Below, in pieces: positions 9,915 to 36,377 of a DNA stretch of 64,000 nt. The notes under the pieces were generated by a model. The model worked only from the letters and a program-made list of their open reading frames with translations. It was not told the origin of the DNA and made no database searches. Source of the DNA: an uncultured delta proteobacterium (GTDB taxonomy: Bacteria > Desulfobacterota > Desulfomonilia > UBA1062). The translations under genes and the position numbers were made by a program. Position 1 is the first letter of the stretch, and each line of letters begins with the position of its first letter. The DNA is taken from the NCBI GenBank assembly GCA_963752595.1, contig CAVVYZ010000001.1, positions 64,001 through 128,000 on the forward strand, given 5' to 3'.

Positions 9915-10081
9915 TGCGTTCGAAAGAGATTGAACGTCACCAACCCGTAACCGGCTAAGGCATCAGAGAGATGAAAAAGTTCTGCGGCCTTTTTTTTAGA
10001 CGAGCTCTTCATAGGGCTCATTCTACTGGAAAACCGGTTTGTAAATTCGATTTAATGGGCTTATAATACAATAATACAAGT

Positions 10082-13057
10082 ATGAAACCGCCGGGCAGAA
10101 TCAATCCGATGAATCTGATCACCCACACGGTTCTGGGTGCCATGGCTTTTGCGTTCAATCATTCCAGGACGTTGAAACGCCACATGAAAAACACCGATGG
10201 GTGGATCAATTTCTCCATTGGCATCCGCACGGGAAACGGCACGGTCGCCCAGACCGTCAGCTTCCAGAACGGCCGGGTCAGGGTATTGAAAGGCGTGAAC
10301 GGCGGTGCGGATGTCGTGCTCGAAACAGCGGACGACTCGGTCCTCAAGGAGCTCGCTTCTGCCCCGCCCAGCGAAGTGCTCAACATGATGCTCCGGAACA
10401 AGCTTACGATAGAGGGCAACGTGTCTTACCTGCAGCTCTTCACCTATTACCTTTCCCTGGTGTCGGGAAGCCTGCACGGCCGGATGCTCGCAAAGGCCCG
10501 CAGGCAAGATATAGAGTCTCGCAAAGAGGAATTTTGCGTCAATATCCCCGGTCTGGCCCAGGATCTGAAAGACAGGCGGAAAGAGCACCTGAAAGCCGAC
10601 AGGTCTGAAGACAGGGGCGTCGTGTATCTCAGTGATCCGTATCTTTCCAGCTATGACCTGGAGGACTTTCCCCGCCTCAAGACGCTCATGAAAAGGCACC
10701 GGAGCAGCAGGCCCGAGCTGTGCGCCGAGCGTCCGAAGCTGCTTACCGAGTGGTTCCGCAGGAACGGGTTCGAGGAAGCGAGCCCGGGCAGGCCGTGGCA
10801 GCCCGTACTGAGGCAGGGCCTTGCCTTCGAGCACCTGATGAGGCACAAAAGGCCGGTCATTGCCGATTCCCAGCTCCTGGCCGGATCGACCACCACCAAT
10901 CCCGTCTGCGGGGTGATCGTGTACCCCGATGCGCAGGCCACAATGATCTGGGGCGAGCTGAACTCGGTCGATAAACGGCTCCTGAACCCATACGATATCA
11001 GCGATGAAACAAAAGAAACGCTGAACGACATCTTCCCGTTCTGGACCAAAAGGACGTTCCATGAATGGGTGAACAGGGAATACAACAGGCCGCTCTCCTT
11101 GAGACTCAGCGAGCGTCTCGTCGCTATCGTCTGCTCCAAGGCTATCTGCGTGTCGCACACCGTTCCCGGCCTGAAAACATTTTTGGACAAGGGCACTTCC
11201 GGCATTATCGAGGATATCCGGGAGAGACTCTCCGAAGATACGCCGGATGAAGACGGCCGGGCAGTGCTGGAGGGCATGATCCATTCCCTGAAAGGCCTGG
11301 AGGCATACGCCGATCACCTGGCAGCAGAGGCACGGCTGCAGGCTGCCAAGGCCGCGGACCCTGCCCGGGAGAAGGAGCTGCTCCGCATGGCGGAGATCTG
11401 CGGACACGTTCCCCGCCTGCCTGCAGAAACGCTGGATGAAGCCGTCCAGAGCATCTGGACTGTCTGGATCGGCATGCACATGGAGAATACCAATGCCGGG
11501 CTTTCCCCCGGCCGGCTCGATCAGTGGCTGCAGCCTTATTACCTGGCAGACATGGAAAAGATCAGTGTGGAAGAAGGTCGTATAGATTACATCCACCGGG
11601 CCGTCGAGCTCATCGGCTGCCTTTATTTGAGGATATCAGACCATATGCCGCTCTCGCCGGACATCGGCAACATCCTCTTCGGCACGTCTCCTTCCAATCA
11701 GGTCATCACCCTGGGCGGCGTCACGCCGGAGGGCGAAGACGGCGTGAACGACATGACCTATATCTTCCTCAAGGTCACCGAGATGCTGGGCCTCCCGGAC
11801 CCGAACATCAATGCCCGCATCAACACTGAAAAGAACAGCGAGACCTATATCAGGAGGCTCTGTGAGGTGAACTTCACCACATCGGCCACGCCCTCCCTGC
11901 ACAACGATGCGGCGGTATTTGCCTCTTTGCGTCAGCACGGCTACCCGGAAGAGCACATCCGCGACTGGAGCGCCACCGGCTGCGTGGAGCCCACCATTTC
12001 CGGCCGCCATAACGGCCATACCGGCAGCATCCTCATCAACCTGGTCGCTGCCATGGAGATGGCACTTCACAACGGCTGCCACCCCCTCATGAAGTGGGAC
12101 TTAGGCCCCAAGACCGGAAACGTAGAAGACTTCCGCACCTTCGAAGAATTTTTCGAGGCCTATAGGGCCCAGATTACTTTCCTGATCGATCAGGCGGTGA
12201 GCTTGAACAACATGTTCGGAGAGGTACATGCGCGGATGAGGCCCACACCGTTCTTAAGCTCGACTATCGAGGGCTGCATCGAGAAAGCATGCGACATGAC
12301 GCGGGGCGGCGCCCGGTACAACACCACGGGTGCGGCGAACATCGGGCTGACGGATGTCACTGACAGCCTCATGGCTGTCAAGAAGCTGGTATTCGATGAG
12401 AGGAAGCTCAGCTTCTCTGAGCTCAAGGATGCCGTGGACTCCGACTTCCGGAACGCACCCGGCGTCAGGGCACTGGTACAGAACAAGGTGCCGCTGTTCG
12501 GCTCGGGCAATGCAGAAGCGCTTGCCATGGCCAACCGCGTTGCATCGCTCATCCACGGGATCTATACATCGCACCGCAACTTCCGCGGAGGCAGGTATAC
12601 GAGCGGGTTCTGGTCCATGTCCCAGCATACGGCCTACGGCAATCTTTCGGGCACGTTGCCATCGGGGAGGCTCGCCGGAAAGCCCTTCACGCCGGGGCTC
12701 ACTCCCGAGCCCCATGCCAGCCGGAGCTACCTTGATTTCATCTCGGATGTTGCACGGCTCAATCCCGAGAACATGGACAACAATATGGCATTCAACGTCA
12801 AGCTCTCACCTTCATCCAAGGACAGCCGGGAGAAAATTGTCGGCAACATGGCCGGCTACGTGAAAGCCTACTGCAGCCTGGGCGGCATGCAGATGCAGTT
12901 CAACGTGGTCGATTCCCGGATGCTCAAAGATGCTTATTCAAACCCCGAAAACTACCGCGACCTGATCGTGAGGATATCGGGATACAATGCCTACTTCGTC
13001 GCGCTTAACAGATCCCAGCAGCTCGAGCTCATCGAGAGGGCCGAGTACGGTGTCTGA
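10082..13057 (+). CDS. Glycyl radical enzyme (PFL-like/PflD family) with N-terminal SCP2-like domain
   Basis: Cys loop ATGCVEP (Cys codon 11981) and C-terminal Gly loop LIVRISGYNAYF (Gly codon 12980), plus GRLDQ and QFNVV motifs. An extra N-terminal region of about 150 aa resembles SCP2. Confidence 0.92.
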   Translation: MKPPGRINPMNLITHTVLGAMAFAFNHSRTLKRHMKNTDGWINFSIGIRTGNGTVAQTVSFQNGRVRVLKGVNGGADVVLETADDSVLKELASAPPSEVLNMMLRNKLTIEGNVSYLQLFTYYLSLVSGSLHGRMLAKARRQDIESRKEEFCVNIPGLAQDLKDRRKEHLKADRSEDRGVVYLSDPYLSSYDLEDFPRLKTLMKRHRSSRPELCAERPKLLTEWFRRNGFEEASPGRPWQPVLRQGLAFEHLMRHKRPVIADSQLLAGSTTTNPVCGVIVYPDAQATMIWGELNSVDKRLLNPYDISDETKETLNDIFPFWTKRTFHEWVNREYNRPLSLRLSERLVAIVCSKAICVSHTVPGLKTFLDKGTSGIIEDIRERLSEDTPDEDGRAVLEGMIHSLKGLEAYADHLAAEARLQAAKAADPAREKELLRMAEICGHVPRLPAETLDEAVQSIWTVWIGMHMENTNAGLSPGRLDQWLQPYYLADMEKISVEEGRIDYIHRAVELIGCLYLRISDHMPLSPDIGNILFGTSPSNQVITLGGVTPEGEDGVNDMTYIFLKVTEMLGLPDPNINARINTEKNSETYIRRLCEVNFTTSATPSLHNDAAVFASLRQHGYPEEHIRDWSATGCVEPTISGRHNGHTGSILINLVAAMEMALHNGCHPLMKWDLGPKTGNVEDFRTFEEFFEAYRAQITFLIDQAVSLNNMFGEVHARMRPTPFLSSTIEGCIEKACDMTRGGARYNTTGAANIGLTDVTDSLMAVKKLVFDERKLSFSELKDAVDSDFRNAPGVRALVQNKVPLFGSGNAEALAMANRVASLIHGIYTSHRNFRGGRYTSGFWSMSQHTAYGNLSGTLPSGRLAGKPFTPGLTPEPHASRSYLDFISDVARLNPENMDNNMAFNVKLSPSSKDSREKIVGNMAGYVKAYCSLGGMQMQFNVVDSRMLKDAYSNPENYRDLIVRISGYNAYFVALNRSQQLELIERAEYGV

Positions 13058-13132: not shown

Positions 13133-14742
13133 ATGGAGAGTAAAGACTTAAAGGATTTGATAGATACCTTCTTTACCTGCGATAAACAGGAAGTCCTGCA
13201 GATCTTCAACGAGTTCCTGGATACCCTGGTGGCGGAGGAAACGCTCACGCTCCATCGAGCCCATGAGCAGGAATTACGAGACGGCCCAGTCGAACCCCGA
13301 GATCCACATCATCCCCGGCAATCTCAAGGATGCCCGCGACGCCATTTTCCCCTTCTTCTGGGGCACGGACGGGTGGTACTCGCGGCTCCACCTGGAAAAC
13401 GTCAAGGGCCCGGCCAACTATGCCTCGCTGGTCGGCTCGTTCGCCTGCCTGCTGAAAAACCCCAACCTCTGCGTCGACACCTACAGCCAGCGCTCCAACG
13501 AGCTGGAAGTCAAGGCCATCACGCGCTGGCCAATCTCGTGTTCTACCACACCGAAGACCCCTGGGGCGTCTTCACCATGGGCGGAACCATATCCAATCTC
13601 TACGGCGGCAAGATCGGCATTGAAAAGGTGCTGCCCGGCGCCATGCAGAAGGGGCTCTGCAGGCGAGGAGGCTCGTCGGGCATCGTCTCCGAAGCCGCCC
13701 ACTATTCCAATGCAACCCTGGCCGGCTGGCTGGGCATGGGGACCGACAACCTCATCGCCATCCCCACGGACGATGCCTGCAGCATGGATCTGACCTGCTC
13801 GAAGCCGAGCTGGAAAGGCTCTACGCGGGAGGCACGCCCTGGTGGCCTTTGTCATGGCCACCTTCGGCACCACCGATGCCTTCGGCATCGACGACATTGC
13901 CGGCATCCGCAAGATCATCGACGCAAAGTCAGCGGCAATACTCCGTGCCCGCGCCGCAACTTCACGTGGATGCCGCTGTCGGCTGGCCGCTGAGCTTCCT
14001 CACCGAGTACGATGCGGAAAAGAACCCGTTCAAGCTGAACAAGGATGTGCTGGCCGTGGTGGCAGAGCTCAGGGACAAAGGCCATGAGACATCAGGTATG
14101 CCGACACCGTCACCATCGATTTCCACAAGATGGGCTGGGGCCATTATCCGTCGAGCGCCTTCATCGTCTACAACCGGAACGACATCAGCCTGCTCTTCCG
14201 GAGCATGGAGCAGATGCCGTATTTCTCCGAGGCCGATTACCGGCACGATCCGGCCCTGTTCACCCTGGAGATGCTCGCGGCCCGGCATAGGCCCGTATTC
14301 GGTCATGGCCTCGCTGAACGGCATCGGGCTGAGGGCTAGCAGATGCTCGTGGCCCATGCCCTGGAGATGGCGCTCCTAGCGCAAAGAAGCAGATCGAGAA
14401 GCTCGAATACTGCAAGGTGCTCAACATGAAATGCCTGGGGCCCAGCGTCGTCTGGTGGGTTCTGCCCAAGGGGCGGAATGCGAAAACGGATCTATCGAGG
14501 ATTTTGTCCAGGGCAGGGTCCGGCAGGAAGAGTACCAGCGGTACTTCTCCGAGGTCCACCGTCTTTTCGAGAAGCGCAAGGCTGCCATGGATCCCAGGAA
14601 AGATGCCCGGCTCAGCTTCACCACATGCATGGGCTACCAGCCCGGGGGGATTGCCATGCCCGCATGGAAGGCCGTGTTCTTCAATCCCAAGACCGATGCC
14701 GAGGTGGTGAGGCAGATCATCAGAAGCATCGAAGAAGTGTAA
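13133..14742 (+). CDS. Group II PLP-dependent decarboxylase family protein (multiply frameshifted in this assembly)
   Basis: Pieces in successive frames: GVFTMGGTISNLYG, AAHYS, MATFGTTDAFGIDDI, LHVDAAVG and DFHKMGWGHYPSS (PLP Lys); SD GGAG at the start. Confidence 0.8.
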
Positions 14743-14830: not shown

Positions 14831-15898
14831 ATGAAGGGAAATCCGTTCGAAAGGCTCCAGACGTTTCTGGATCAGCTCCCTCTCGGGTTTCCCCGCACCG
14901 AGTCCGGCATTGAGATCGAGATCCTGAAAAGACTATTTACCGAAGAAGAAGCCGGGATTGCAATGCTTCTCACCCCGTTCTCCGAGGATGTGGAGCAGAT
15001 TGCGGCGAGGAACGGCATCAGCGGGGCGGGTCTCGGCGAAAAGCTGGAGTTCATGGCAAAAAAAGGCCTCTTTTTCAGGATCCGGCGTGACGGGAAGACA
15101 TATTACAACACCGCTCCCTTCATGATCGGACTCTATGAGTACTCGGTGCAGAAGATGGACCGGGAACTGGCAGAGCTCTATTCGCGATACTACGAAAAGG
15201 CCTACCAGATGGAGATGGGTGCAAGCGATGTGCCCGGGTTCAGGGTTATCCCCGTGAGCGAGAGTATCGATCCCGAGATACGAATCTACCCGTATCCTGC
15301 ACTCGAAATGGAGATCCGATCTGCCAGGAAGATCTCGGTTGCGGAGTGTATATGCCGCAAAGAAGCCGGAATGATCGGGAAGGGCTGCGGCGGGTCTCTC
15401 GAAACCTGCCTTCATTTCGGATCTGCAGCGGAATATTATATTGAAAACGGCATCGGCCGGGAGATCGATGCGGATGAGGCAATAGAGATCGTCAAGGCTG
15501 CCGACAAGGCCGGCCTGGTGCACGCAGGGGTGAACACCAGACATCTCTCCAATCTCTGCAACTGCTGCCCGTGCTGCTGTGCATCGATGAAAGGCATAAC
15601 CGCCAAAGGACTGGCCAGGCGCAAATACCTGAATCCCCTCTATGAGGCCGTTATCCATGATGATAATTGCACCGGCTGCGGGCTCTGTGCCGATCGATGC
15701 CCGGTCAGGGCCGTCACGATCGATGATGCATCCCGGATAAACAGAGACCTGTGCCTTGGCTGCGGTCTGTGTGCCGGCACCTGTCCAACGGGTGCGATAT
15801 CCCTCATCCCGCGGTCGGACAGGGAGGAGCCCTTCGAGCATATCCTCGATCTGGGTATGGCAATCCTTCAGGGCAAAGCTCGACCAGCCAAATCATGA
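14831..15898 (+). CDS. 4Fe-4S dicluster protein with N-terminal HTH-like region
   Basis: CICR, CNCCPCCC and two CxxCxxCxxxCP motifs (CTGCGLCADRCP, CLGCGLCAGTCP); SD GGAGG. Confidence 0.88.
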   Translation: MKGNPFERLQTFLDQLPLGFPRTESGIEIEILKRLFTEEEAGIAMLLTPFSEDVEQIAARNGISGAGLGEKLEFMAKKGLFFRIRRDGKTYYNTAPFMIGLYEYSVQKMDRELAELYSRYYEKAYQMEMGASDVPGFRVIPVSESIDPEIRIYPYPALEMEIRSARKISVAECICRKEAGMIGKGCGGSLETCLHFGSAAEYYIENGIGREIDADEAIEIVKAADKAGLVHAGVNTRHLSNLCNCCPCCCASMKGITAKGLARRKYLNPLYEAVIHDDNCTGCGLCADRCPVRAVTIDDASRINRDLCLGCGLCAGTCPTGAISLIPRSDREEPFEHILDLGMAILQGKARPAKS

Positions 15899-15935: not shown

Positions 15936-16085
15936 ATGAAAAAATCGAAGGAGTTCAGCATTGAATCCGGGCACCGCCGTTTAGGGGTCACCCTTGACGG
16001 TGAAGTCGAGAGTATGGATGCCCCGCTTCATTACCACATACTCTCCGAGGCATTACGGGTAATTGCTCCCCTGCCTGTGCAGTAA
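15936..16085 (+). pseudogene. C-terminal remnant of a diacylglycerol/lipid kinase (YegS/DAGK) family gene
   Basis: Manual translation: MKKSKEFSIESGHRRLGVTLDGEVESMDAPLHYHILSEALRVIAPLPVQ*. The DGE...P.....ALRVIAP pattern is the characteristic C-terminus of this family. Confidence 0.65.
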
Positions 16086-20385: not shown

Positions 20386-22317
20386 ATGAGGAAGTTTTTT
20401 GACCCGATATGCAAGGTCATAACGTTTTTCTGTTTCATCATGGTCGCGCTCTTTGTCTACGATTTTTTCTTCTGGTCGAAGACCGAGGAGGGGAGGCTTG
20501 CATCAAAGGTAATCATAATCTTTTTCTCCCTCGCGGGATTCTTTATGTATTGCATCCACTGCATGATCAGGAAAGGAGAACACGCTGACAATCAAAGCTC
20601 ATGGGACAGCTTTGAAGCCCAAAATGAATATGAAAAAGAATATATCGCACTGGGATATGCCCTTCCCCATGAAAGGACCGAAACTCTCCCCGTACACGGA
20701 CCTGAGATCACGAGTATATACAAACTGAAAGTCATGAGCCTTGCAATAGCAGGTTATGCATATATCTTCGGGATTATTTGCGCACTTGCCTCTCTCCTGT
20801 ACCATCTTGTCCGGTTTGCTTTCACGACTTCCTATCCGTACATTCTCTTGCTCATGAGCATACCGGTTCTGTTCGTCGTCACGGTATTACTGGGAGCCAT
20901 GCTCGCGACAGTCCGAACCCGCATGACACCCCCGAAGGGCATCGAAGTTGCCCGCGACGATGCACCGGAACTTTTTGAAACGGTGAACCATCTGAGGAAA
21001 CGGCTGCAGGGCCCTCGCGTGGGCAAGATTGTGCTTACGAATGATTTTGCTGCATCCATTGTCCGGATTCCGCGGCTCGGGATTTTGGGATGGCACAAGA
21101 ATTACCTTGTCCTGGGGCTCCCGCTTCTTCAGGCCCTTTCCGTAACACAGACACTCGCACTTCTTGCGCATGAGTACAGCTATCTCTCAGGAGAGCACGT
21201 CTGGTTTGATTCCTGGATCTACAGGCTCAGGCAAACCTGGATGCAGACCATGAGGGCCCTGGAGAACCGGAAACACTGGAGCCGGTCGATCGCAACTCGG
21301 TTTTTCCGATGGTATGCCCCGTATTTCCATTCATATACCTTGCCACTCGCAAGGTCCCGGGAATACGAAGCGGATCTGTGCTCCGCCACCTTTGCAGGCG
21401 AGAGTGAAACCGCAGCAGCACTGGTACGGGCCCATGTGCTGGAGTTCTATCTACAGGAGTCATTCTGGCCGATGATAACGGATATGATGGAGACCCAGCC
21501 CGAACCCGTTGCATCGCTCTATGGGCTCATGCAGGAAAAATTCCAGCAGGGCATTGATGAGGGTCAGGCAAAAGAATGGGTCGAGAGATCGCTCCAAAAA
21601 GAGCCGGGATCAACCGATGCCCATCCGGACCTGAAAAAACGTCTGAATGCCATAAATGAGGCACCGGTCTTCCATAATTCCCTGGCGATGAGCTCCGCGC
21701 AATACTATTTTCCGGATCTCGATGCATTCAGAAAGCTTTTCGATGACGAGTGGCGATCATATATCAGAGCATCCTGGCAGGAAAGATATGCCTATGTACA
21801 CAAATTGAGAACCAGAATCGAAGAACTGTCTTCAAAGGCACGGCTGAAGCCATTGAATCTCGAAGAAGCCCTGGATCTTGCCTACCTCACCGAGGACCTT
21901 TCGGGCAGTGGAAAGGCATTACCTTTGTTCGAGCGCATCCTGAAATACAAACCCGAGTGCGTACCGGCTCTCTGTGCAGCGGGAAGGATAATGCTGGCAA
22001 ATGGAGACGAATCCGGGGCAGCCTGCATCGAACGGGTAATGGCTTTGGATTTGAACTACAGCATTTACGGCCTTGAAGCCCTTTATAATTTCTACCTGGA
22101 AAAAGGAGACCGGGAAAAGACCGGGAAGTATTACCAGAAGCTGTCCGATCAGAGAGATCTGATCGAGCATGCAGAACAGACGCGGAAATTGGAGACGGAA
22201 AGAGCCGCGTCCGCAGAAAAAGGTAAGAAGAACATCCGGAAGAAATTGCATACGGAGAGAATGAGCCTGGGATTGATAAAGGTGTGCCCTGTAGAGAATA
22301 ACCCTATCTTCCCGTAA
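20386..22317 (+). CDS. M48 (HtpX/Ste24-like) membrane metallopeptidase homolog with C-terminal TPR and a degenerate HExxH
   Basis: N-terminal TM helices, APELF, LGLPLL, LAHEYSYL, EYEAD, HPDLKKRL and TPR-like helices; SD GGAGGGAGGA. Confidence 0.8.
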   Translation: MRKFFDPICKVITFFCFIMVALFVYDFFFWSKTEEGRLASKVIIIFFSLAGFFMYCIHCMIRKGEHADNQSSWDSFEAQNEYEKEYIALGYALPHERTETLPVHGPEITSIYKLKVMSLAIAGYAYIFGIICALASLLYHLVRFAFTTSYPYILLLMSIPVLFVVTVLLGAMLATVRTRMTPPKGIEVARDDAPELFETVNHLRKRLQGPRVGKIVLTNDFAASIVRIPRLGILGWHKNYLVLGLPLLQALSVTQTLALLAHEYSYLSGEHVWFDSWIYRLRQTWMQTMRALENRKHWSRSIATRFFRWYAPYFHSYTLPLARSREYEADLCSATFAGESETAAALVRAHVLEFYLQESFWPMITDMMETQPEPVASLYGLMQEKFQQGIDEGQAKEWVERSLQKEPGSTDAHPDLKKRLNAINEAPVFHNSLAMSSAQYYFPDLDAFRKLFDDEWRSYIRASWQERYAYVHKLRTRIEELSSKARLKPLNLEEALDLAYLTEDLSGSGKALPLFERILKYKPECVPALCAAGRIMLANGDESGAACIERVMALDLNYSIYGLEALYNFYLEKGDREKTGKYYQKLSDQRDLIEHAEQTRKLETERAASAEKGKKNIRKKLHTERMSLGLIKVCPVENNPIFP

Positions 22318-22341
22318 CGCCTTTTTGTTTATCATACCGAG

Positions 22342-22388
22342 AAGGCATCCTCCCTTTCCCTTAAAAAGAGAAGGGAGGATGCCTTTTT
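22342..22388. terminator. Rho-independent terminator-like hairpin between convergent genes
   Basis: 15-bp inverted repeat AAGGCATCCTCCCTT / AAGGGAGGATGCCTT followed by Ts. Confidence 0.75.
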
Positions 22389-22397
22389 CAGGTTCTG

Positions 22398-24203
22398 TTA
22401 TTCGCCTTCCTTGTACAGAGCTTCGATGCTGTTGTTGTATCTTTCCGTGACATTCTTGCGCTTGAGCTTCATGGTCTGGGTCAGCATCCCGTTTTCCAGG
22501 GTGAACGGCTCTGAGATGAAGATGAACTTTTTCGGGATCTCGTAGCTGCCGTACTTGGTCTTCAGGGCATCGAGGATCTCCTTGGTGATCATCTTCTGCA
22601 CATCCTCCCGCTCTGTGAGGGCCTTGTAGTCTTTCGGCAGGTTGTTCTTCTGAGCGTATCCGTCCAGGGCGACAGGATCGGGCACGATCATGCAGACATT
22701 GTAAGGCCTTGTTGGCGCCGTAGATCAGGGCGTTCTGCACGTAGTGGTTCAGGCAGATATCCTCCTCCAGTGCTGCGGGGAAGACATACTTGCCGTTTTC
22801 GAGCTTGAACTGCTCCTTGATGCGGCCCGTGATCCACAGGAACCCGTCTTCGTCGATGCGGCCGCGGTCGCCGGTCCTCACGCCGCCGTCCGGGGTCATG
22901 ATCTCTTTGGTCGCTTCGGGCTTGTTGTGGTAGCCCTTCATGACATTGGGGCCGTAGCAGATGATCTCTCCGTCTTTGGCACCCGGCTCGACCACGGACT
23001 GGTCGATGACCACCCTGATCTTGTCCATCACCGGGCCCACGCTCCCGATCTTGAAGTTGCCGGGGCAGTTCATGGTAATGCCCGGGGTGGTTTCGGTCAT
23101 GCCGTAGGCATCGTAGAGAGGAATGCCGATGTCGTAGAAGAATTTGGAGATATCGGGGTTCATGGCCGCGCTGCCTGTCATGGAGCCGCGGAGCCTTCCC
23201 GCCGAAGAGGTCGCGGATCTTCTGGAACACGATCTTGTCCACGAGCTTGAACTTGAGTTCTGCCATGAAGCTCGACTTGCCCTGATCGGCCAGGCGTCGC
23301 GCTTTCTTTGCCGGCCTCAACGCCCATATCGAAGAGCGGCTTTCTTGAACCCGCCGGCATCATTCACTTTCGTGACGATCGTATCATACACCTTGTTGAA
23401 GATGCGGGGGACCGCGATGAGGAAGGTGGGCCTGATCAGCGCCATGTCCTGAACAACGGTGTTCGTGCTCTCCATGAAACCCATGGACCCGCCGAGCGCC
23501 GTGAACGTATGGAGCTCTCCCAGGCCGAAGCAATGCGCCCAGGGCAGCAGCGAGAGGACCTGTCGTTCTCGTTGAAATCGGGATAGGCCTTTGCCCGTGC
23601 ATGGTGGTTGCTCGTCCAGTTCATATGCATGAGAAGGACGCCCTTCGGGTCTCCCGTCGTACCGGAGGTGTAGACAAGGACTGCCACTTCCTCGGGATCC
23701 GGATAGATGGACTTGACCGGGTTCTTCTCTCCGATCTTTTCCAGCTCGGCCATCGTGTCCTTGCCTTCCCCGGCGATCACGATTGATCTTTTCCAGGGTA
23801 GGAATGCGAGAGGGAAAATCCTTGATCTTTGCCAGGATCTCCGGCTTTGAAACAAAGAGGACCTTGATGGCGCTGTCCTTGATGATGTATTCCCAGACAT
23901 GGGTCAGCTCCGCTTCGTACATGGGGACGTAGAAGGCCCCAAGACCCACGGTGGCATAATGGCCGACAGCCCAGTCGGTGCTGTTGTTGGAAATGATGCC
24001 CACTGCATCGCCCCTCTTGATGCCCAGGCCTGCCAGTCCGCCCGCAGATTATCGACACGACGGCCTACTTCGCGGTAGGTGACCCATTCGTACACCCCCT
24101 GCTTGTTCTTCGTGCCCAGAAACGGCCTGTCGGGAAATCGCTTCACGCTGCTCTCGAACAGCTCCACCAGATTGTCCGGTTTATCGAGCTGAAATTGAAC
24201 CAT
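22398..24203 (-). CDS. fadD: Long-chain fatty acid-CoA ligase (AMP-binding, FadD15/COG1022-like), frameshifted in this assembly
   Basis: Fragments in successive frames: [39 protein letters not shown] and LTQTMKLKR; SD GGAGG. Confidence 0.85.
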
Positions 24204-24367
24204 GTTACCTCCACTATCTGTTTATTATACCTTGCATTATTAAGTTTTATTATAAACATAAATTCGATCTTATATCTACTGGTTCCGGATAATCTTTTTG
24301 AAACGGGCAGAAAAACCATGAGGGCTGGAGCCGGCCGCCTTGGTTTGAAAAGTAGGCCGGCTTAAGG

Positions 24368-25508
24368 TCAATCTTTCAGGACATTTCGTGCAATGACGAT
24401 CCGCTGGATTTCGGAAGTTCCCTCATAGATCGTTGTTGCGCGTGCATCGCGGGAGAGCCTCTCGATCTTGAATTCTTTCGTGTAGCCATAGCCGCCGTGG
24501 ATCTGAACGGCGTGATAGGCGGTCTTGTTGGCCACCTCGGAGGCAAAGAGCTTTGGCCATGGATGCCTCAGTGGTAAAGGGCAATCCCCTGGTCCTTCTT
24601 GTCTGCTGCAGACAACGTGAGCAGGTGAGCGGCCTCGATGCCGGTGGCCATGTCGGCGATCATCCACTGGATGGCCTGGAACGAGCTGATGGACCTGCCG
24701 AATTGCTTACGGTCCTTGGCATACTTCACCGCCTCGCTCATGCATGCCCGCGCGATCCCGATGGCCTGCGATGCGATGCCGATGCGGCCGCTGTCCAGGG
24801 CAGTCATGGCGATCTTGAACCCCTGTCCGGCCCTTCCCAGGAGGTTCTCCTTGGGCACGCGGCAGTCCTCGAAGATGAGTTCTACGGTATTGGATGCCCT
24901 CAACCCCATCTTGTCTTCTTTGGATCCCACAGAAAATCCTGGAGTGCCTTTCTCCACGATGAGGGCGGAGAGGCCGCTTGTTTCCCTTCTCGGGGTCGGT
25001 CCTGGCGATGAGGTTAACCACGTCGGCATACCCGCCGTGGGTAATGAAGATCTTGGTCCCGTTCACGAGATAGTGGTCGCCTTTATCCTATGCCCTGATC
25101 TGAAGGCCCCCGGGTCTGACCCTGCAGAGGGCTCGGTCAGGGCAAAACATCCGAGCATCTCGCCGCCGGCGAGGCGGGTCAGGTATTTTTCCTTCTGGGC
25201 CTGGCTCCCGAACTTGAGCAGCGGCTCTGTGGAGAGGTTGGCAACCGACATGGTCACTGCTGTTGATGCACAGGCATAGGCGATCTCCTGGAGGGCAAGG
25301 CAGTAGCTCACCGCTCCTGCACCCGAGCCGCCGTATTCTGCCGGCACCATCATGCCGAGCAGACCCAGCCCTCCCATCTTCTTGACTGCCTCCAGGGGAA
25401 AGGTCTCTTCCCTCTCCCACTTCGATGCGAAGGGCTCGAGCTCTTTCTTTGCAAAGTCCTTGGCCATGAGGCCGATCATTTTCTGTTCAGCGTTCAGGTG
25501 AAATCCAT
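24368..25508 (-). CDS. Acyl-CoA dehydrogenase (butyryl-CoA dehydrogenase-like), frameshifted in this assembly
   Basis: [49 protein letters not shown] and [10 protein letters not shown]; ATG at 25508 after AAGGAGG. Confidence 0.88.
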
Positions 25509-32237: not shown

Positions 32238-32606
32238 CTGTAGCCCCTTTCTTTCCTCTGCTATGACTTAGGATAGTGCCGTGGAGAAAAAAATGTATCT
32301 ACCCTTAATTATCACTTGCAATTTTTTCAGGAAGTATTATTAGAAAAATCAAAAGAGGCTCGCTCTTGGATGCGAGAAAAGGGCTCCGGGACACAGCAGA
32401 TTCAGGGAGAGAGTGATACAGTGACGAAGCTTAAAGATCATATCATCACGGCACCCGTCAGCGATGCCGAACGGTATTGAATACCTTTCGATGATACTCC
32501 CTTTCACTCACCTCATCCCTCCCTACCGACACAATCCATTTCAAAAAATTAATACTCAACACAGAAATAATACATGCCGATATTTGACGCAAGGAGGAGA
32601 TTTGAG

Positions 32607-33911
32607 ATGAAGAACAACGGTCCTGCAGTGTCTGTTTCACCCGAAGACCCGGACCCCCTGGGTACTGAGGCCCCCGAGGAGCCCCCATCGATATCGTCGG
32701 CCCTAACCCAGGATTTGTTGTTTGCACCACAACCCGCAAGGAAGTTTCCTTTAGCCGGCCGTATTCCCATCAGCCAACGTTGCCGCCAGTTCTTAAGGGA
32801 TTTCTATCCCCACGCAACTGAAACCGACTGGGCAAGCTGGAACTGGCAGATCCGCAACAGCATCAACACCCCCGAGCAGATCCAGAGGATCATCGGGATG
32901 ACCGTGGAAGAGTTTGATGCCATTCAGAGGCGCACGGCACTCCCCTTCAGGATCACCCCGTACTACGCGAGCCTCATGAGCCCGACGGACCCGTCACAGG
33001 CCATAAGGCGATCCGTCGTGCCGGTGGTCGATGAGTACACCATGAGTCCCGGAGAGGAGCAGGACCCGCTGTCCGAAGAGCACCAGAGCCCGGTGCCCGG
33101 GCTTGTTCACCGGTACCCCGACCGGGTGCTGTTCCTGACAACAGGCTTCTGTTCCACGTATTGCCGCTACTGCACCAGGTCACGCATGGTCGGCAACAAC
33201 GGCAAGTTCCGGAGCAGCATCACGCAGTGGCAGCAGGCCATTGCGTATATAGAGGCCACACCCCAGGTGCGGGACGTCCTCCTTTCCGGAGGAGACCCCC
33301 TGACACTGCCGGACAGCCATCTGGATTACCTTCTGTCAAGCATCAGGCGTATCCCCCATGTGGAGATCATCCGCATCGGCACCAAGGCGCCCGTGGTATT
33401 ACCTCAGCGGATAACGCCGAAGCTTATGAGGATCCTGAAGAAGTACCAGCCTCTCATGATGAGCATCCATTTCACGCATCCCGATGAACTCACTCCGGAA
33501 ACGAAGGCGGCGTGCAATATGCTCGCTGATTCCGGTGTCCCGCTCGGGAGCCAGACAGTGCTGCTCAAAGGCATCAACGATAATGTAGATACGCTCAAAT
33601 CCCTCTTCCATGGGCTTCTCAAGGTCCGGGTTCGTCCATACTACCTGTACCAGTGCGACCCGATCCTGGGCTCTGCTCATTTCAGGACCACCGTAGAAAA
33701 GGGCATCGAGATGATCGAAGGACTGCGAGGTCATACCTCGGGGTATGCGATTCCCCACTATGTGGTCGATGCCCCCGGCGGAGGAGGCAAAATACCGCTC
33801 CTGCCCGATTACTTCCAGGGCCGCGCCGATGGACAGGTTATCCTGAGGAACTACGAGCGAAAAATTTTCCGCTACCCCGAGTATGATGCGGAATGCCCTC
33901 CGGGCGTGTAA
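32607..33911 (+). CDS. kamA: KamA-family radical SAM enzyme (lysine 2,3-aminomutase-like)
   Basis: GLVHRYPDR, CSTYCRYCTR (CxxxCxxC), LLSGGDPL, YYLYQCD and VDAPGGGGK (PLP Lys); SD AAGGAGGAG. Confidence 0.92.
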   Translation: MKNNGPAVSVSPEDPDPLGTEAPEEPPSISSALTQDLLFAPQPARKFPLAGRIPISQRCRQFLRDFYPHATETDWASWNWQIRNSINTPEQIQRIIGMTVEEFDAIQRRTALPFRITPYYASLMSPTDPSQAIRRSVVPVVDEYTMSPGEEQDPLSEEHQSPVPGLVHRYPDRVLFLTTGFCSTYCRYCTRSRMVGNNGKFRSSITQWQQAIAYIEATPQVRDVLLSGGDPLTLPDSHLDYLLSSIRRIPHVEIIRIGTKAPVVLPQRITPKLMRILKKYQPLMMSIHFTHPDELTPETKAACNMLADSGVPLGSQTVLLKGINDNVDTLKSLFHGLLKVRVRPYYLYQCDPILGSAHFRTTVEKGIEMIEGLRGHTSGYAIPHYVVDAPGGGGKIPLLPDYFQGRADGQVILRNYERKIFRYPEYDAECPPGV

Positions 33912-33912
33912 G

Positions 33913-34890
33913 ATGAAGGTCGGCATTACCTATGATCTCAGGGACGATTATCTGAAAGAGGGGTACAGCTCCGAGGAGACCGCCGAGTTCGACCGTGCCG
34001 ATACCATTGATGCCATCGATGAGGCACTCGTTGCACTCGGCCATGCCACGGACCGGATCGGAAACGTAAAGCAGCTCGTCTCCAAGCTCGCTTCCGGCCA
34101 TAGATGGGACCTGGTTTTCAACATTGCCGAAGGCATGTACGGGGTCGGGCGGGAGGCCGTGGTCCCTGCCTTGCTCGATGCATATAAGGTCCCCTATACT
34201 TTCTCGGATCCGTTTGTCCTCTCGCTGACCCTGCACAAGGGCATGACAAAGGCTGTCATACGCGATGCAGGCCTCCTGACCGCCGACTTCGTGCTGGTCA
34301 ATTCAGCAGACGAGATCGATGCCGTACGCCTGCCGTATCCGCTGTTTGCAAAACCTGTTGCAGAAGGTACGGGCAAGGGCATATCCGATACCTCCCGGAT
34401 ATCCTCTCCCGAAGAGCTTCGTTCGATCTGCGAGCGCCTGCTGAAAGAGTTCCGCCAGGCCGTGCTCGTTGAAACTTATCTTCCTGGCAGGGAGTTCACC
34501 GCAGGCGTCGTAGGCACCGGAAGCGATGCGCAGCTCGTCGGCATGATGGAGGTCTTGTTCCGCGACAAGCAGGACGGTGAGCTGATCTATTCGTACCATA
34601 CCAAATCGAACTATGAAGAAATGATCGTATACTCTATCCCTGAGCAGAGCGTGATCGATTCATGCTCAGAGCTTGCCCTTGCTTCATGGAAGGCCCTTGG
34701 ATGCAGGGACGGCGGCCGGGTCGACATCAGGATGGATGCTCAGGGACGGCCCAATTTCATCGAGGTAAACCCCCTGGCAGGGCTCAATCCGGTTCATTCC
34801 GACCTGCCGATCCTGTGCAGGCTCAACGGCATCTCTTTCCAGAACCTCATCGAGCGCATCCTCCTGAGCACTTTGAAGAGAATCTGCTGA
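33913..34890 (+). CDS. D-Ala-D-Ala ligase-like ATP-grasp enzyme 1
   Basis: VFNIAEG, FAKPVAEGTGKGI, GREFT, RVDIR and FIEVNPLAGL; starts 1 nt after the kamA stop. Confidence 0.9.
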   Translation: MKVGITYDLRDDYLKEGYSSEETAEFDRADTIDAIDEALVALGHATDRIGNVKQLVSKLASGHRWDLVFNIAEGMYGVGREAVVPALLDAYKVPYTFSDPFVLSLTLHKGMTKAVIRDAGLLTADFVLVNSADEIDAVRLPYPLFAKPVAEGTGKGISDTSRISSPEELRSICERLLKEFRQAVLVETYLPGREFTAGVVGTGSDAQLVGMMEVLFRDKQDGELIYSYHTKSNYEEMIVYSIPEQSVIDSCSELALASWKALGCRDGGRVDIRMDAQGRPNFIEVNPLAGLNPVHSDLPILCRLNGISFQNLIERILLSTLKRIC

Positions 34891-34899
34891 AGAGCCTTT

Positions 34900-35898
34900 G
34901 TGAAAAAGCCCGTTATAATCCTTCACCAGAAACTGCCCCTTGATGCCTCACCGGATGACCAGGATGTGCTCATCCAGGCGGCAGCGATATCGGATGCGCT
35001 GACGAGTCTCGGCTACCAGTCCTCCATCGTGCCTTTCGAACTCGACATCCACGCGTTGGCTGCCCGGCTCACCCGCATCAAACCCCTGTGCGTTTTCAAT
35101 ATCGTCGAGTCGCTGGACGACGACGGCAGGCTCATACACCTTGCCTGCTCGATCCTGGACCATCTCGGCATCCCTTACACCGGGGCCTGCACCGAGGCGA
35201 TGTTCCTCACCTCGAACAAGGTCCTGGCCAAGAAATGGATGCACAGATCAGGCATCCCGACGCCGGAATGGATTATGCCGGGCAACTCACCCGAGAGCAA
35301 TCTCCCGTTTCCTTCCCTCTACATCGTGAAGGCCCTCTGGGAGGAAGCATCCGTTGGGATCGACGGCGAGTCGGTGAAGGAGGCAAAGGATCTCCCCGGT
35401 CTGATTGTTTCCCTTGAGAAGAGGGCGCATGTCCTGAACAAAAAGTGCTTTGCTGAGCGCTATATCGACGGAAGGGAGTTCAACCTCTCGGTCCTTGGAG
35501 GAGTACGCGGGCCACAGGTGCTGCCGCCTGCAGAGATCACGTTCTCTTTCCCGGACGGAAGGCCCAAGATCCTTGATTACAAGGCGAAGTGGCATGAGGA
35601 TTCGGTTGAATACAGATCCACGCTCCGGACCTTTGAATTCGGAAAACAGGATGCAGGTCTCCTCAAGGAGCTTGAACAGGTAGCGCATTTGTGCTGGGAA
35701 GCCTTTGACCTGAGAGGCTATGCCCGGGTCGATTTCCGGGTGGACGGGGAGGGGAGGCCGTGGGTCCTGGAGATCAACGCCAACCCCTGCATATCGCCGG
35801 ACAGCGGGTTTGTGGCCGCCTCTCAGAGGGCCGGGATGAGCTACCCGGAAGTGATCGCCCGCATTTTATCGGATACCCTGGAGAAAGGCGGGTTATGA
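34900..35898 (+). CDS. D-Ala-D-Ala ligase-like ATP-grasp enzyme 2
   Basis: VFNIVES, GIPYTG, EEASVGI, GREFN, ARVDFR and LEINANPCI. Confidence 0.9.
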   Translation: MKKPVIILHQKLPLDASPDDQDVLIQAAAISDALTSLGYQSSIVPFELDIHALAARLTRIKPLCVFNIVESLDDDGRLIHLACSILDHLGIPYTGACTEAMFLTSNKVLAKKWMHRSGIPTPEWIMPGNSPESNLPFPSLYIVKALWEEASVGIDGESVKEAKDLPGLIVSLEKRAHVLNKKCFAERYIDGREFNLSVLGGVRGPQVLPPAEITFSFPDGRPKILDYKAKWHEDSVEYRSTLRTFEFGKQDAGLLKELEQVAHLCWEAFDLRGYARVDFRVDGEGRPWVLEINANPCISPDSGFVAASQRAGMSYPEVIARILSDTLEKGGL

Positions 35899-36377
35899 AA
35901 CTCTCCTATCGCAGCAGGGTAACACCAGGCGACAGGGACACGGTACGGGCCATCGTTGATTCTACAGGGTTTTTCAATTCAGAAGAGCTGGCTATTGCCG
36001 TAGAGCTCGTGGACGAACGCCTGAGCAAAGGACCGGAGAGCGGCTATCACTTCCTGTTCTGCGAGCAGGGAAGCTCAAGAGACCTTGGATACACCTGCTT
36101 CGGGCGCATTCCGGGTACCGCCTCAAGCTTCGACCTTTACTGGATAGCGGTTCACCGGCAATTCCAGGGACAGGGTATCGGCCGAGAATTGCTCGGCGCT
36201 ACCGAGAATATCATCAGGGAGATGGGCGGTTCCCGCGTCTACATCGAGACCTCCTCCCGGGGCCTCTATCAACCGACACAGGCTTTCTACGAAAGATCAG
36301 GCTATGCCCGGGAGGCTGTCCTCGAAGACTTCTACGCACCCGGCGACAGCAAGATTATCTATGTCAAGGAGTTGTAA
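35895..36377 (+). CDS. GNAT N-acetyltransferase
   Basis: DLYWIAVHRQFQGQGIGRELL acetyl-CoA motif and FYERSGY; ATGA overlap with the upstream ligase stop. Confidence 0.9.
   Translation: MKLSYRSRVTPGDRDTVRAIVDSTGFFNSEELAIAVELVDERLSKGPESGYHFLFCEQGSSRDLGYTCFGRIPGTASSFDLYWIAVHRQFQGQGIGRELLGATENIIREMGGSRVYIETSSRGLYQPTQAFYERSGYAREAVLEDFYAPGDSKIIYVKEL

Follow-up and report, generated by a model that had tools for sequence, protein, structure and literature searches.

An SCP2-fused glycyl radical enzyme from an uncultured deltaproteobacterium, a probable eliminase with a candidate lipid-derived substrate

We analyzed a 64,000-nucleotide stretch of DNA (the window) from an uncultured delta proteobacterium (assembly GCA_963752595.1, contig CAVVYZ010000001.1, positions 64,001 to 128,000, forward strand), in which one intact gene encodes a 991-residue glycyl radical enzyme (GRE) with an N-terminal domain of the SCP2 fold. 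By its sequence, the encoded protein belongs to the GRE superfamily and carries the eliminase motif; it is not a glycerol or 1,2-propanediol dehydratase (GD or PD), CutC, HypD, or HpsG, and it falls in a large uncharacterized clade of anaerobes. The enzyme is probably an eliminase acting on some long-chain lipid-derived substrate. It is likely a separately transcribed paralogue that is activated in trans by an activase encoded on another contig (C15) of the same genome. The reaction that we favor, although only tentatively, is the dehydration of a sphingoid-type long-chain amino-polyol.

An earlier note on this DNA, made from the letters alone, had described the extra N terminus as SCP2-like. 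The Pfam SCP2 model (PF02036) matched residues 30 to 120 (10169 to 10441), weakly by sequence (22.9 bits against a cutoff of 21.3), with an E value of 6.5e-6 when the N terminus was scanned alone, and SCP2 was matched at an E value of ≤0.1 by 56 of the 68 aligned N termini of relatives. SCP2 topology was predicted at the N terminus in the full-length model (pLDDT 88.8, pTM 0.91) and in a model of the N-terminal domain (pLDDT 76.8). Foldseek placed the latter closest to UbiJ-SCP2 (6h6p, E value of 7e-7), with AF1534, alkylsulfatase C-terminal domains, and eukaryotic SCP2 among the other leading matches, and in a wide VIA structure search (48,161 chains) the ten best matches were all SCP2 folds (Z of 8.8 to 12.0). 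The N terminus has the five-stranded sheet and helices in the topology of PF02036, and the assignment is borne out by profiles, relatives, model, and fold searches. UbiJ-SCP2, human SCP2/MFE-2, and the C-terminal domain of SdsA1/Pisa1 share the fold (Z of 10 to 12 over 100 to 117 aligned residues) but are only 12 to 20% identical to the window domain, and the latter belongs to a type fused to or paired with a GRE. The alkylsulfatase SdsA1 is a precedent for a carrier fold joined to an enzyme for long-chain substrates (decanesulfonate and dodecanol complexes).

The reading frame has no internal stop and holds both the GCVEP Cys loop and the RISGY Gly loop that had been noted. The Pfam PFL-like and Gly_radical models also matched (PF02901, 554 bits; spans in Table 1), Gly967 aligns with GD Gly763, and the barrel model fits GD (1r8w) with a Foldseek target TM-score of 0.92. 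With its Gly loop, Cys634 loop, and PFL-type barrel, the protein has the hallmarks of the glycyl radical superfamily, while its core is 22 to 30% identical to the solved GREs listed. CxE (C634-V-E636) does not vary among the 143 fused and 16 split sequences, in agreement with the suggestion of a GCVE-type eliminase; according to PMC7077986, this motif in the Cys loop marks GRE eliminases. The core scored under every NCBIfam GRE cutoff: 403 against 1050 bits for CutC (TIGR04394), 425 against 1100 for HypD (NF043068), and, for the HpsG/HpfG, decarboxylase, and PFL models, 373 and 340 against 1000, 275 against 1100, 195 against 1150, and 107 against 994 bits. The dN/dS ratios against six relatives were 0.08 to 0.13 in the GRE core and 0.17 to 0.27 in the SCP2 domain; both domains are under purifying selection. 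The linker between them is the least conserved part (0.24 to 0.47).

Cys634, Glu636, Gly967, and His359 are kept relative to the reference GREs. His359 aligns with GD His164 and HypD His160 and is common to GD, GrpM, PflD, and YbiW. CutC has an Asp there, and the His suggests a preference for C-O cleavage. The best sequence and fold matches are GD from C. butyricum (1r8w) and the GRE 1,2-propanediol dehydratase (5i2g, 9rco; GrpM), with an E value of 5e-118 and 27 to 30% identity. They share the GCVEP loop, the Gly loop, and His164 with the window GRE, but they have no SCP2 domain and lie in a separate clade. GD His281, Ser282, Tyr336, Tyr339, Asp447, Phe450, Tyr640, and Ser642 are replaced by Ala, Gly, Ser, Asn, Gly, Leu, Trp, and Met, and the changes at His281, Ser282, Tyr336, Tyr339, and Phe450 would widen the substrate pocket. 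The GD/PD specificity set of His281, Ser282, Asp447, Tyr/Phe339, and Tyr640 (C. butyricum numbering) is absent, with only His164 kept. CutC (9f3w, 5fau) shares CxE, a near-identical beta-1 stretch (family consensus, residues ~468 to 481), and the Thr at 647. However, where CutC has Asp, Tyr, Tyr, and Phe (positions 359, 351, 651, and 539), the window GRE has His, Cys, Leu, and Asn, respectively, and of the choline-binding residues, only the Thr is kept. HypD (6vxc) is a dehydratase acting on an amino-alcohol; its His160, Cys434, and Glu436 have equivalents in the window GRE, but Asp278, Ser334, Asp339, Phe340, Tyr450, and Thr645, named in PMC7077986, do not.

Asn539 sits at the pocket aromatic of GD (Tyr339), CutC, and HypD (Phe), a position that is Asp in 90 of the 143 fused relatives. 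Thr647 is invariant in all 143 fused members, and Lys353 (158 of 159 fused and split sequences), Trp844, and His849 (each 159 of 159) are signatures of the clade. The subclade of the window GRE additionally lacks aromatics at 349, 350, 352, and 531 and has Asn in place of the common Asp539. Because the pocket has diverged in this way, its substrate may differ from those of its paralogues. The active-site comparison and fold prediction revealed neither a failure of the SCP2 fold nor a clustering with a small-molecule GRE that retains its full specificity residues.

The best 119 other matches to the window GRE are 54 to 90% identical to it and nearly all full length, and many genes of the family are annotated as "formate acetyltransferase." The hosts include Syntrophaceae, Smithella, Desulfosudis, Desulfatibacillum, Desulfoluna, Desulfatiferula, Spirochaetota, and Chloroflexota; Desulfosudis, Desulfatibacillum, Smithella, and Desulfatiferula are degraders of fatty acids or hydrocarbons. 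The family SCP2 profile matched 45 of 401 genomes of the phylum. A sister group, 37 to 43% identical to the window GRE, is without the fusion, and all 12 of its loci fetched have the order GRE, stand-alone SCP2 (same profile), and activase. In a FastTree analysis (65 rows), 43 fused and 11 split sequences formed one clade (SH of 100, stem of 0.45) apart from nine reference GREs, with the fused and split forms each on one side of a branch; IslA, HpsG, HplG, and the succinate synthases lay outside this reference set and are set apart only by low scores. Since SCP2 is a separate gene in the split loci, and since the fused and split forms make up one clade, SCP2 is a standing partner of the clade and not a chance fusion, and the GRE-SCP2 pairing is, on these comparative grounds, functional. 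The earlier proposal of an uncharacterized GRE class holds: the window GRE stands apart in the tree from the characterized small-molecule GREs sampled and shares few specificity residues with them.

Desulfoluna limicola carries five copies, four of them fused and one split. At loci L020, L023, L147, L151, and L153, family GREs stand in tandem pairs, some with one shared activase, and the pocket residues differ within the pair at L020, L023, and L151. Two full-length SCP2-GRE relatives (P0180 and P0211) are without the Cys-loop and Gly-loop motifs and are candidate pseudoenzymes. Recurrent neighbors of the split-form operons (L207, L210, L211, L214, and L215) are DUF6765 genes, metallophosphoesterases, and an unnamed protein of 640 to 820 residues.

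As the earlier note had observed, the window contains no GRE-activating radical SAM gene: none of the 22 genome matches to TIGR02494 falls within it, and a KamA-like gene (32574 to 33911) is the window's sole representative among the genome's 46 Radical_SAM matches. An activase was found elsewhere in the genome, on contig C15 (159356 to 160300), as a whole frame of 314 residues. Three activases of the genome exceed the TIGR02494 cutoff, each beside another GRE. The one on C15 was the best genome match (45 to 68%) for 30 of 30 family-linked activases queried; two further queries are activases of a different GRE, with their best match on C9. The C15 locus consists of a TetR gene, a second SCP2-GRE, and the activase, with an aldehyde oxidoreductase (AOR) gene divergent upstream. 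This second SCP2-GRE is broken by frameshifts and stops in the assembly, and a close genome (L288) has an intact orthologue. The sequencing runs listed included no RNA run; after comparison of C15 with four DNA runs (shares of 0.05 to 0.07) and a DNA comparison at 78% identity, the frameshifts may be either real or errors.

An activase adjoins none of the 12 window-type copies (one row, from L023, was left out as a false motif match). Of the eight genomes in which a window-type copy occurs, seven also carry an activase-linked paralogue; in the remaining one, a family-type activase stands alone. The promoter scan found one site upstream of the gene against a mean of 0.5 in shuffled sequences, which is weak on its own; the identical hexamer pair and 14-nt spacing precede most of the window-type relatives displayed (for example, L001, L002, L004, L005, L008, L014, and L129). 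No clear Shine-Dalgarno sequence lies ahead of the ATG, and a short-leader transcript is predicted. The lack of an adjacent activase, the linked paralogue elsewhere in these genomes, and the conserved promoter-like site are the reasons for which we read the window gene as separately transcribed and activated in trans.

The neighborhoods of family GREs contain an activase in 48 and a TetR regulator in 31 of 100 GRE groups, and the other neighbors vary. Of the 58 WSMSNH-type GREs, 16 have a short-chain dehydrogenase/reductase (SDR) gene no more than 3 kb away, in four gene orders; 22 of the 120 closest homologues listed, and likewise the top Atlas cluster, are named 3-dehydrosphinganine reductase. 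Among 400 genomes of the phylum, this SDR occurs in 13 of the 24 with a fused GRE versus 17 of 376 others, and ceramidase occurs in 6 of 24 versus 11 of 376. The GRE-linked TetR is a distinct subfamily (>185 bits for full-length copies versus ≤70 for the genome's other TetRs), found in 22 of 78 genomes mostly picked for a GRE, SDR, or ceramidase versus none of 80 without any of these. Where it is not near a GRE, it adjoins an FGGY kinase, a class III aminotransferase, and a RuBisCO-like protein at four loci, with a neutral ceramidase once and the SDR type once. The kinase/aminotransferase/RuBisCO-like operon starts with the SDR type in two genomes with window-type copies, in one of which a FadL-type transporter adjoins it, and it lies next to a family GRE operon on one metagenome contig (L146). 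In the window genome, the aminotransferase and RuBisCO-like genes (72 to 87%) open contig C17, the edge of which may have cut off upstream genes of the operon. Close aminotransferase orthologues (at least 74%; 72 to 83%, in pieces, in the window genome) were found in 10 genomes, 8 of them with a fused GRE. The best PDB match of the RuBisCO-like protein is 2,3-diketo-5-methylthiopentyl-1-phosphate (DK-MTP-1-P) enolase. This operon looks like an undescribed nonradical route for the breakdown of long-chain amino-alcohols.

The operon, comprising the FGGY kinase, the class III aminotransferase, the RuBisCO-like protein, and a 358-residue protein, was observed at L394 (552 to 8280; G082), L381, L382, L384, and L408 to L411, as well as in the window genome (G000, C17, 1 to 3900; L412). 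Its variable members are neutral ceramidase, KDSR-like SDR, an epimerase-type reductase, a class II aldolase, and a FadL-type transporter. A second GRE class (845 residues, GD-like His/Asp motifs) lies beside the same TetR subfamily at L368, L370, L372 (partial), L385, and L393. A cluster of a thiamine pyrophosphate (TPP) enzyme, a Zn-dehydrogenase, an epimerase-type reductase, and a small SCP2-like protein occurs at L293 (3869 to 8256; G000, C8), L294, L369, and L386, and two of these copies adjoin a GRE-type TetR. At L371 (5035 to 9258), a 1,407-residue BadF/DUF2229 protein, similar in domain content to ether-lipid reductases, is divergent from a GRE-type TetR.

A lipid substrate, which the SCP2 domain may deliver, is indirectly supported by the separate SCP2 gene of the split loci, by the aromatics lost from the pocket, and by the lipid-catabolic neighbors, and the neighbor evidence points to long-chain amino-alcohols or diols. 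Nothing specific in the evidence gathered points to a sterol or an acyl-CoA. Several observations weigh against this interpretation and its sphingoid form. The SDR scored 130 to 136 bits against the curated KdsR cutoff of 400, so that we call it KDSR-like only, and the 3-dehydrosphinganine reductase names are automatic database names. The SDR neighbors (16) and AOR neighbors (8, of which 6 are at WSMSNH-type GREs) lie beside none of 85 WSMSQH-type and none of 12 window-type GREs, and the sphingoid link to the window copy is therefore indirect. The TetR subfamily also flanks unrelated-looking genes (TPP enzymes, the second GRE class, and amidases). Ceramidase was undetected in 18 of the 24 fused-GRE genomes, none of 19 split-form genomes has the SDR or ceramidase, and neither ceramidase, KDSR-like SDR, nor a close FGGY kinase was found in the window genome (84% complete). 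The co-occurrence counts are inflated by kinship and confounded by a lipid-eating lifestyle; Fisher tests on them overstate the association, kin not being independent, and only the counts are relied on. Finally, the VIA search also found SCP2 folds in Eis acetyltransferases, which are not known to act on lipids.

In the proposed mechanism, the C15 activase would put the radical on Gly967, from which it would move to Cys634; Cys634 would then abstract a hydrogen from a carbinol carbon, and Glu636 and His359 would drive the loss of the neighboring hydroxyl, so that the product is an aldehyde or a ketone. The alkyl tail would stay bound to the SCP2 domain, which would present the polar head to the pocket widened by aromatic loss. 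The favored reaction would convert a phytosphingosine-type C3/C4 diol to 3-ketosphinganine, in which case, on chemical grounds, sphinganine oxidation by the SDR and phytosphingosine dehydration by a His-bearing GRE would both yield the same product. A kinase and a transaminase could then produce a 2,3-diketo-1-phosphate, the substrate type of DK-MTP-1-P enolase, and 3-ketosphinganine would enter a reductase/FGGY kinase/class III transaminase/RuBisCO-like route followed by beta-oxidation. The window copy would be a diverged, separately transcribed paralogue that may take a variant substrate.

The alternative that survives best, possible although unlikely, is a lipid eliminase with a different long-chain substrate, such as an alkane-1,2-diol, a fatty acid with an internal diol, or a glyceryl ether. 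It would act by dehydration or ether C-O cleavage, with an aldehyde product passing through an aldehyde:ferredoxin oxidoreductase (AOR) and acyl-CoA ligases to beta-oxidation. The enzymes with which the window GRE has His359 in common cleave C-O bonds, and Asn539 in place of the family Asp, together with the four lost aromatics, argues against an amine-binding acid. Genes for AOR (in three gene orders), acyl-CoA ligases (11 of 100 GRE groups), and glycerol kinase (4 of 100) lie near family GREs. However, the AOR and glycerol kinase associations are partly the shared synteny of kin, none adjoins a window-type copy, and the links to KDSR-like SDR, ceramidase, and transaminase would be left unexplained.

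It is distinctly less probable that SCP2 serves structure or activation, as small subunits do in other GREs, and that the substrate is small and soluble. The split gene order, with SCP2 between GRE and activase, would suit such a role, as would split-form neighbors (DUF6765, phosphoesterases, and unknown proteins) among which there are no lipid markers, the retention of SCP2 in P0180 and P0211 without both catalytic motifs, and a full-model pTM of 0.91, which suggests a firmly docked domain. This explanation fits poorly with the replacement of pocket aromatics by smaller residues, with nearest folds that are lipid or quinone carriers, and with named hosts that degrade fatty acids or hydrocarbons.

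A CutC-like sphinganine ammonia-lyase, which would take the hydrogen from C1 and eliminate the C2 amine to give a 3-hydroxy long-chain aldehyde for AOR, has a slightly smaller chance again. The near-CutC consensus at residues ~468 to 481 and the shared Thr647 are consistent with it, and AOR and KDSR-like SDR both neighbor WSMSNH paralogues; against these stand the His in place of the CutC Asp at 359, the absence of the CutC Tyr and Phe contacts, and the Asn rather than Asp at 539 of the window copy. Finally, a stranded duplicate with no activation at all, or a noncatalytic partner of the C15 paralogue, would account for the missing adjacent activase (0 of 12 copies) and the broken C15 paralogue but is very improbable, given the intact catalytic motifs, the core dN/dS of 0.08 to 0.13, the conserved promoter-like site, the whole C15 activase frame, the many unrelated genes that are also split in the assembly, and the intact C15 orthologue in L288. 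The dehydration of a sphingoid-type amino-polyol thus remains the reading that we tentatively favor.

The features of the gene are collected in Table 1.

Table 1. Features of the SCP2-fused GRE gene and its upstream site (window coordinates)
Feature	Position	Strand	Basis or remark
Sigma-70-type promoter-like site	10039..10067	+	10 of 12 consensus matches, 17-nt spacer, 14 nt ahead of ATG
SCP2-fused GRE gene, 991 aa, intact	10082..13057	+	Open reading frame without internal stop
SCP2-fold domain, residues 9-127	10106..10462	+	Pfam match 30-120; fold searches
Mostly helical linker, SCP2 to GRE barrel, residues 128-196	10463..10669	+	Predicted secondary structure
PFL-like GRE barrel, residues 198-853	10673..12640	+	Pfam; Foldseek TM-score
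Clade-specific Lys353 and His359	11138..11158	+	Alignment
Asn539, pocket-aromatic site of other GREs	11696..11698	+	Alignment
Cys loop GCVEP, residues 633-637 (Cys634, Glu636)	11978..11992	+	CxE motif of GRE eliminases
Thr647	12020..12022	+	Invariant in fused members; aligns with CutC Thr
Clade motif W844-S-M846-S-Q-H849	12611..12628	+	Alignment of fused and split sequences
Glycyl-radical domain	12689..13000	+	Pfam Gly_radical 870-973
RISGY Gly loop, residues 964-968	12971..12985	+	Gly967 codon at 12980-12982

Downstream of the GRE, a gene similar to group II pyridoxal phosphate (PLP) decarboxylases extends over three frames (13133 to 14742, + strand) and is intact in L001 (532 residues); it neighbors the GRE only in L001 and the window genome. 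Its identity as a sphingosine-1-phosphate lyase was ruled out, as all 24 PDB matches of the intact orthologue are of the group II decarboxylase type. The lipid-kinase gene found after the PLP gene in L001 survives in the window as a remnant at ~15945 to 16082. Two nearby genes, a phosphoesterase upstream and a ferredoxin gene at 14831, were ruled out as partners of the GRE, since they are not recurrent at GRE loci. Many genes at 21919 to 25479, elsewhere, and on contigs C15 and C17 of the genome (G000) are split by frameshifts (apparent acyl-CoA ligase, acyl-CoA dehydrogenase pieces, AOR, and RuBisCO-like), which points to errors in the assembly more than to mass gene decay. The region from 32574 to 36377 (+ strand) contains the KamA-like radical SAM gene, two apparent ATP-grasp ligases, and an acetyltransferase-like gene; of these, KamA was scanned with profiles and the rest were read by eye.

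To our knowledge, characterized GRE eliminases act on small soluble molecules, in agreement with the solved structures listed. Neither an SCP2-linked GRE nor the proposed sphingolipid route was described in the full-text literature searched, a scope outside which most subscription papers fall. The accessible part of PMC9172201 has only a coincidental co-occurrence of the terms, and that of PMC12583861 concerns a succinate synthase, with no mention there of SCP or sterol. What is new for the window GRE is the trans activase, the split between paralogues in neighbors and pocket, and the TetR-linked kinase/transaminase/RuBisCO-like cluster.

In a broader proposal, which is more doubtful than the favored reaction itself, the clade would comprise the first GRE eliminases for membrane lipids, with SCP2 feeding sphingoid bases, as one arm of an undescribed oxygen-free breakdown of sphingolipids (ceramidase, GRE/KDSR-like reductase, FGGY kinase, transaminase, and RuBisCO-like protein) in fatty-acid-degrading anaerobes, and one activase would serve several paralogues of different specificity. 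The analysis supplies an activase to pair with the window GRE, a shortlist of substrates, and named species that carry the family. If a lipid-directed GRE branch is real, it would extend radical C-O and C-N cleavage to membrane lipids, would help to explain the recycling of sphingolipids and similar lipids in sediments and digesters, and would assign a role to many genes that currently bear the annotation "formate acetyltransferase."

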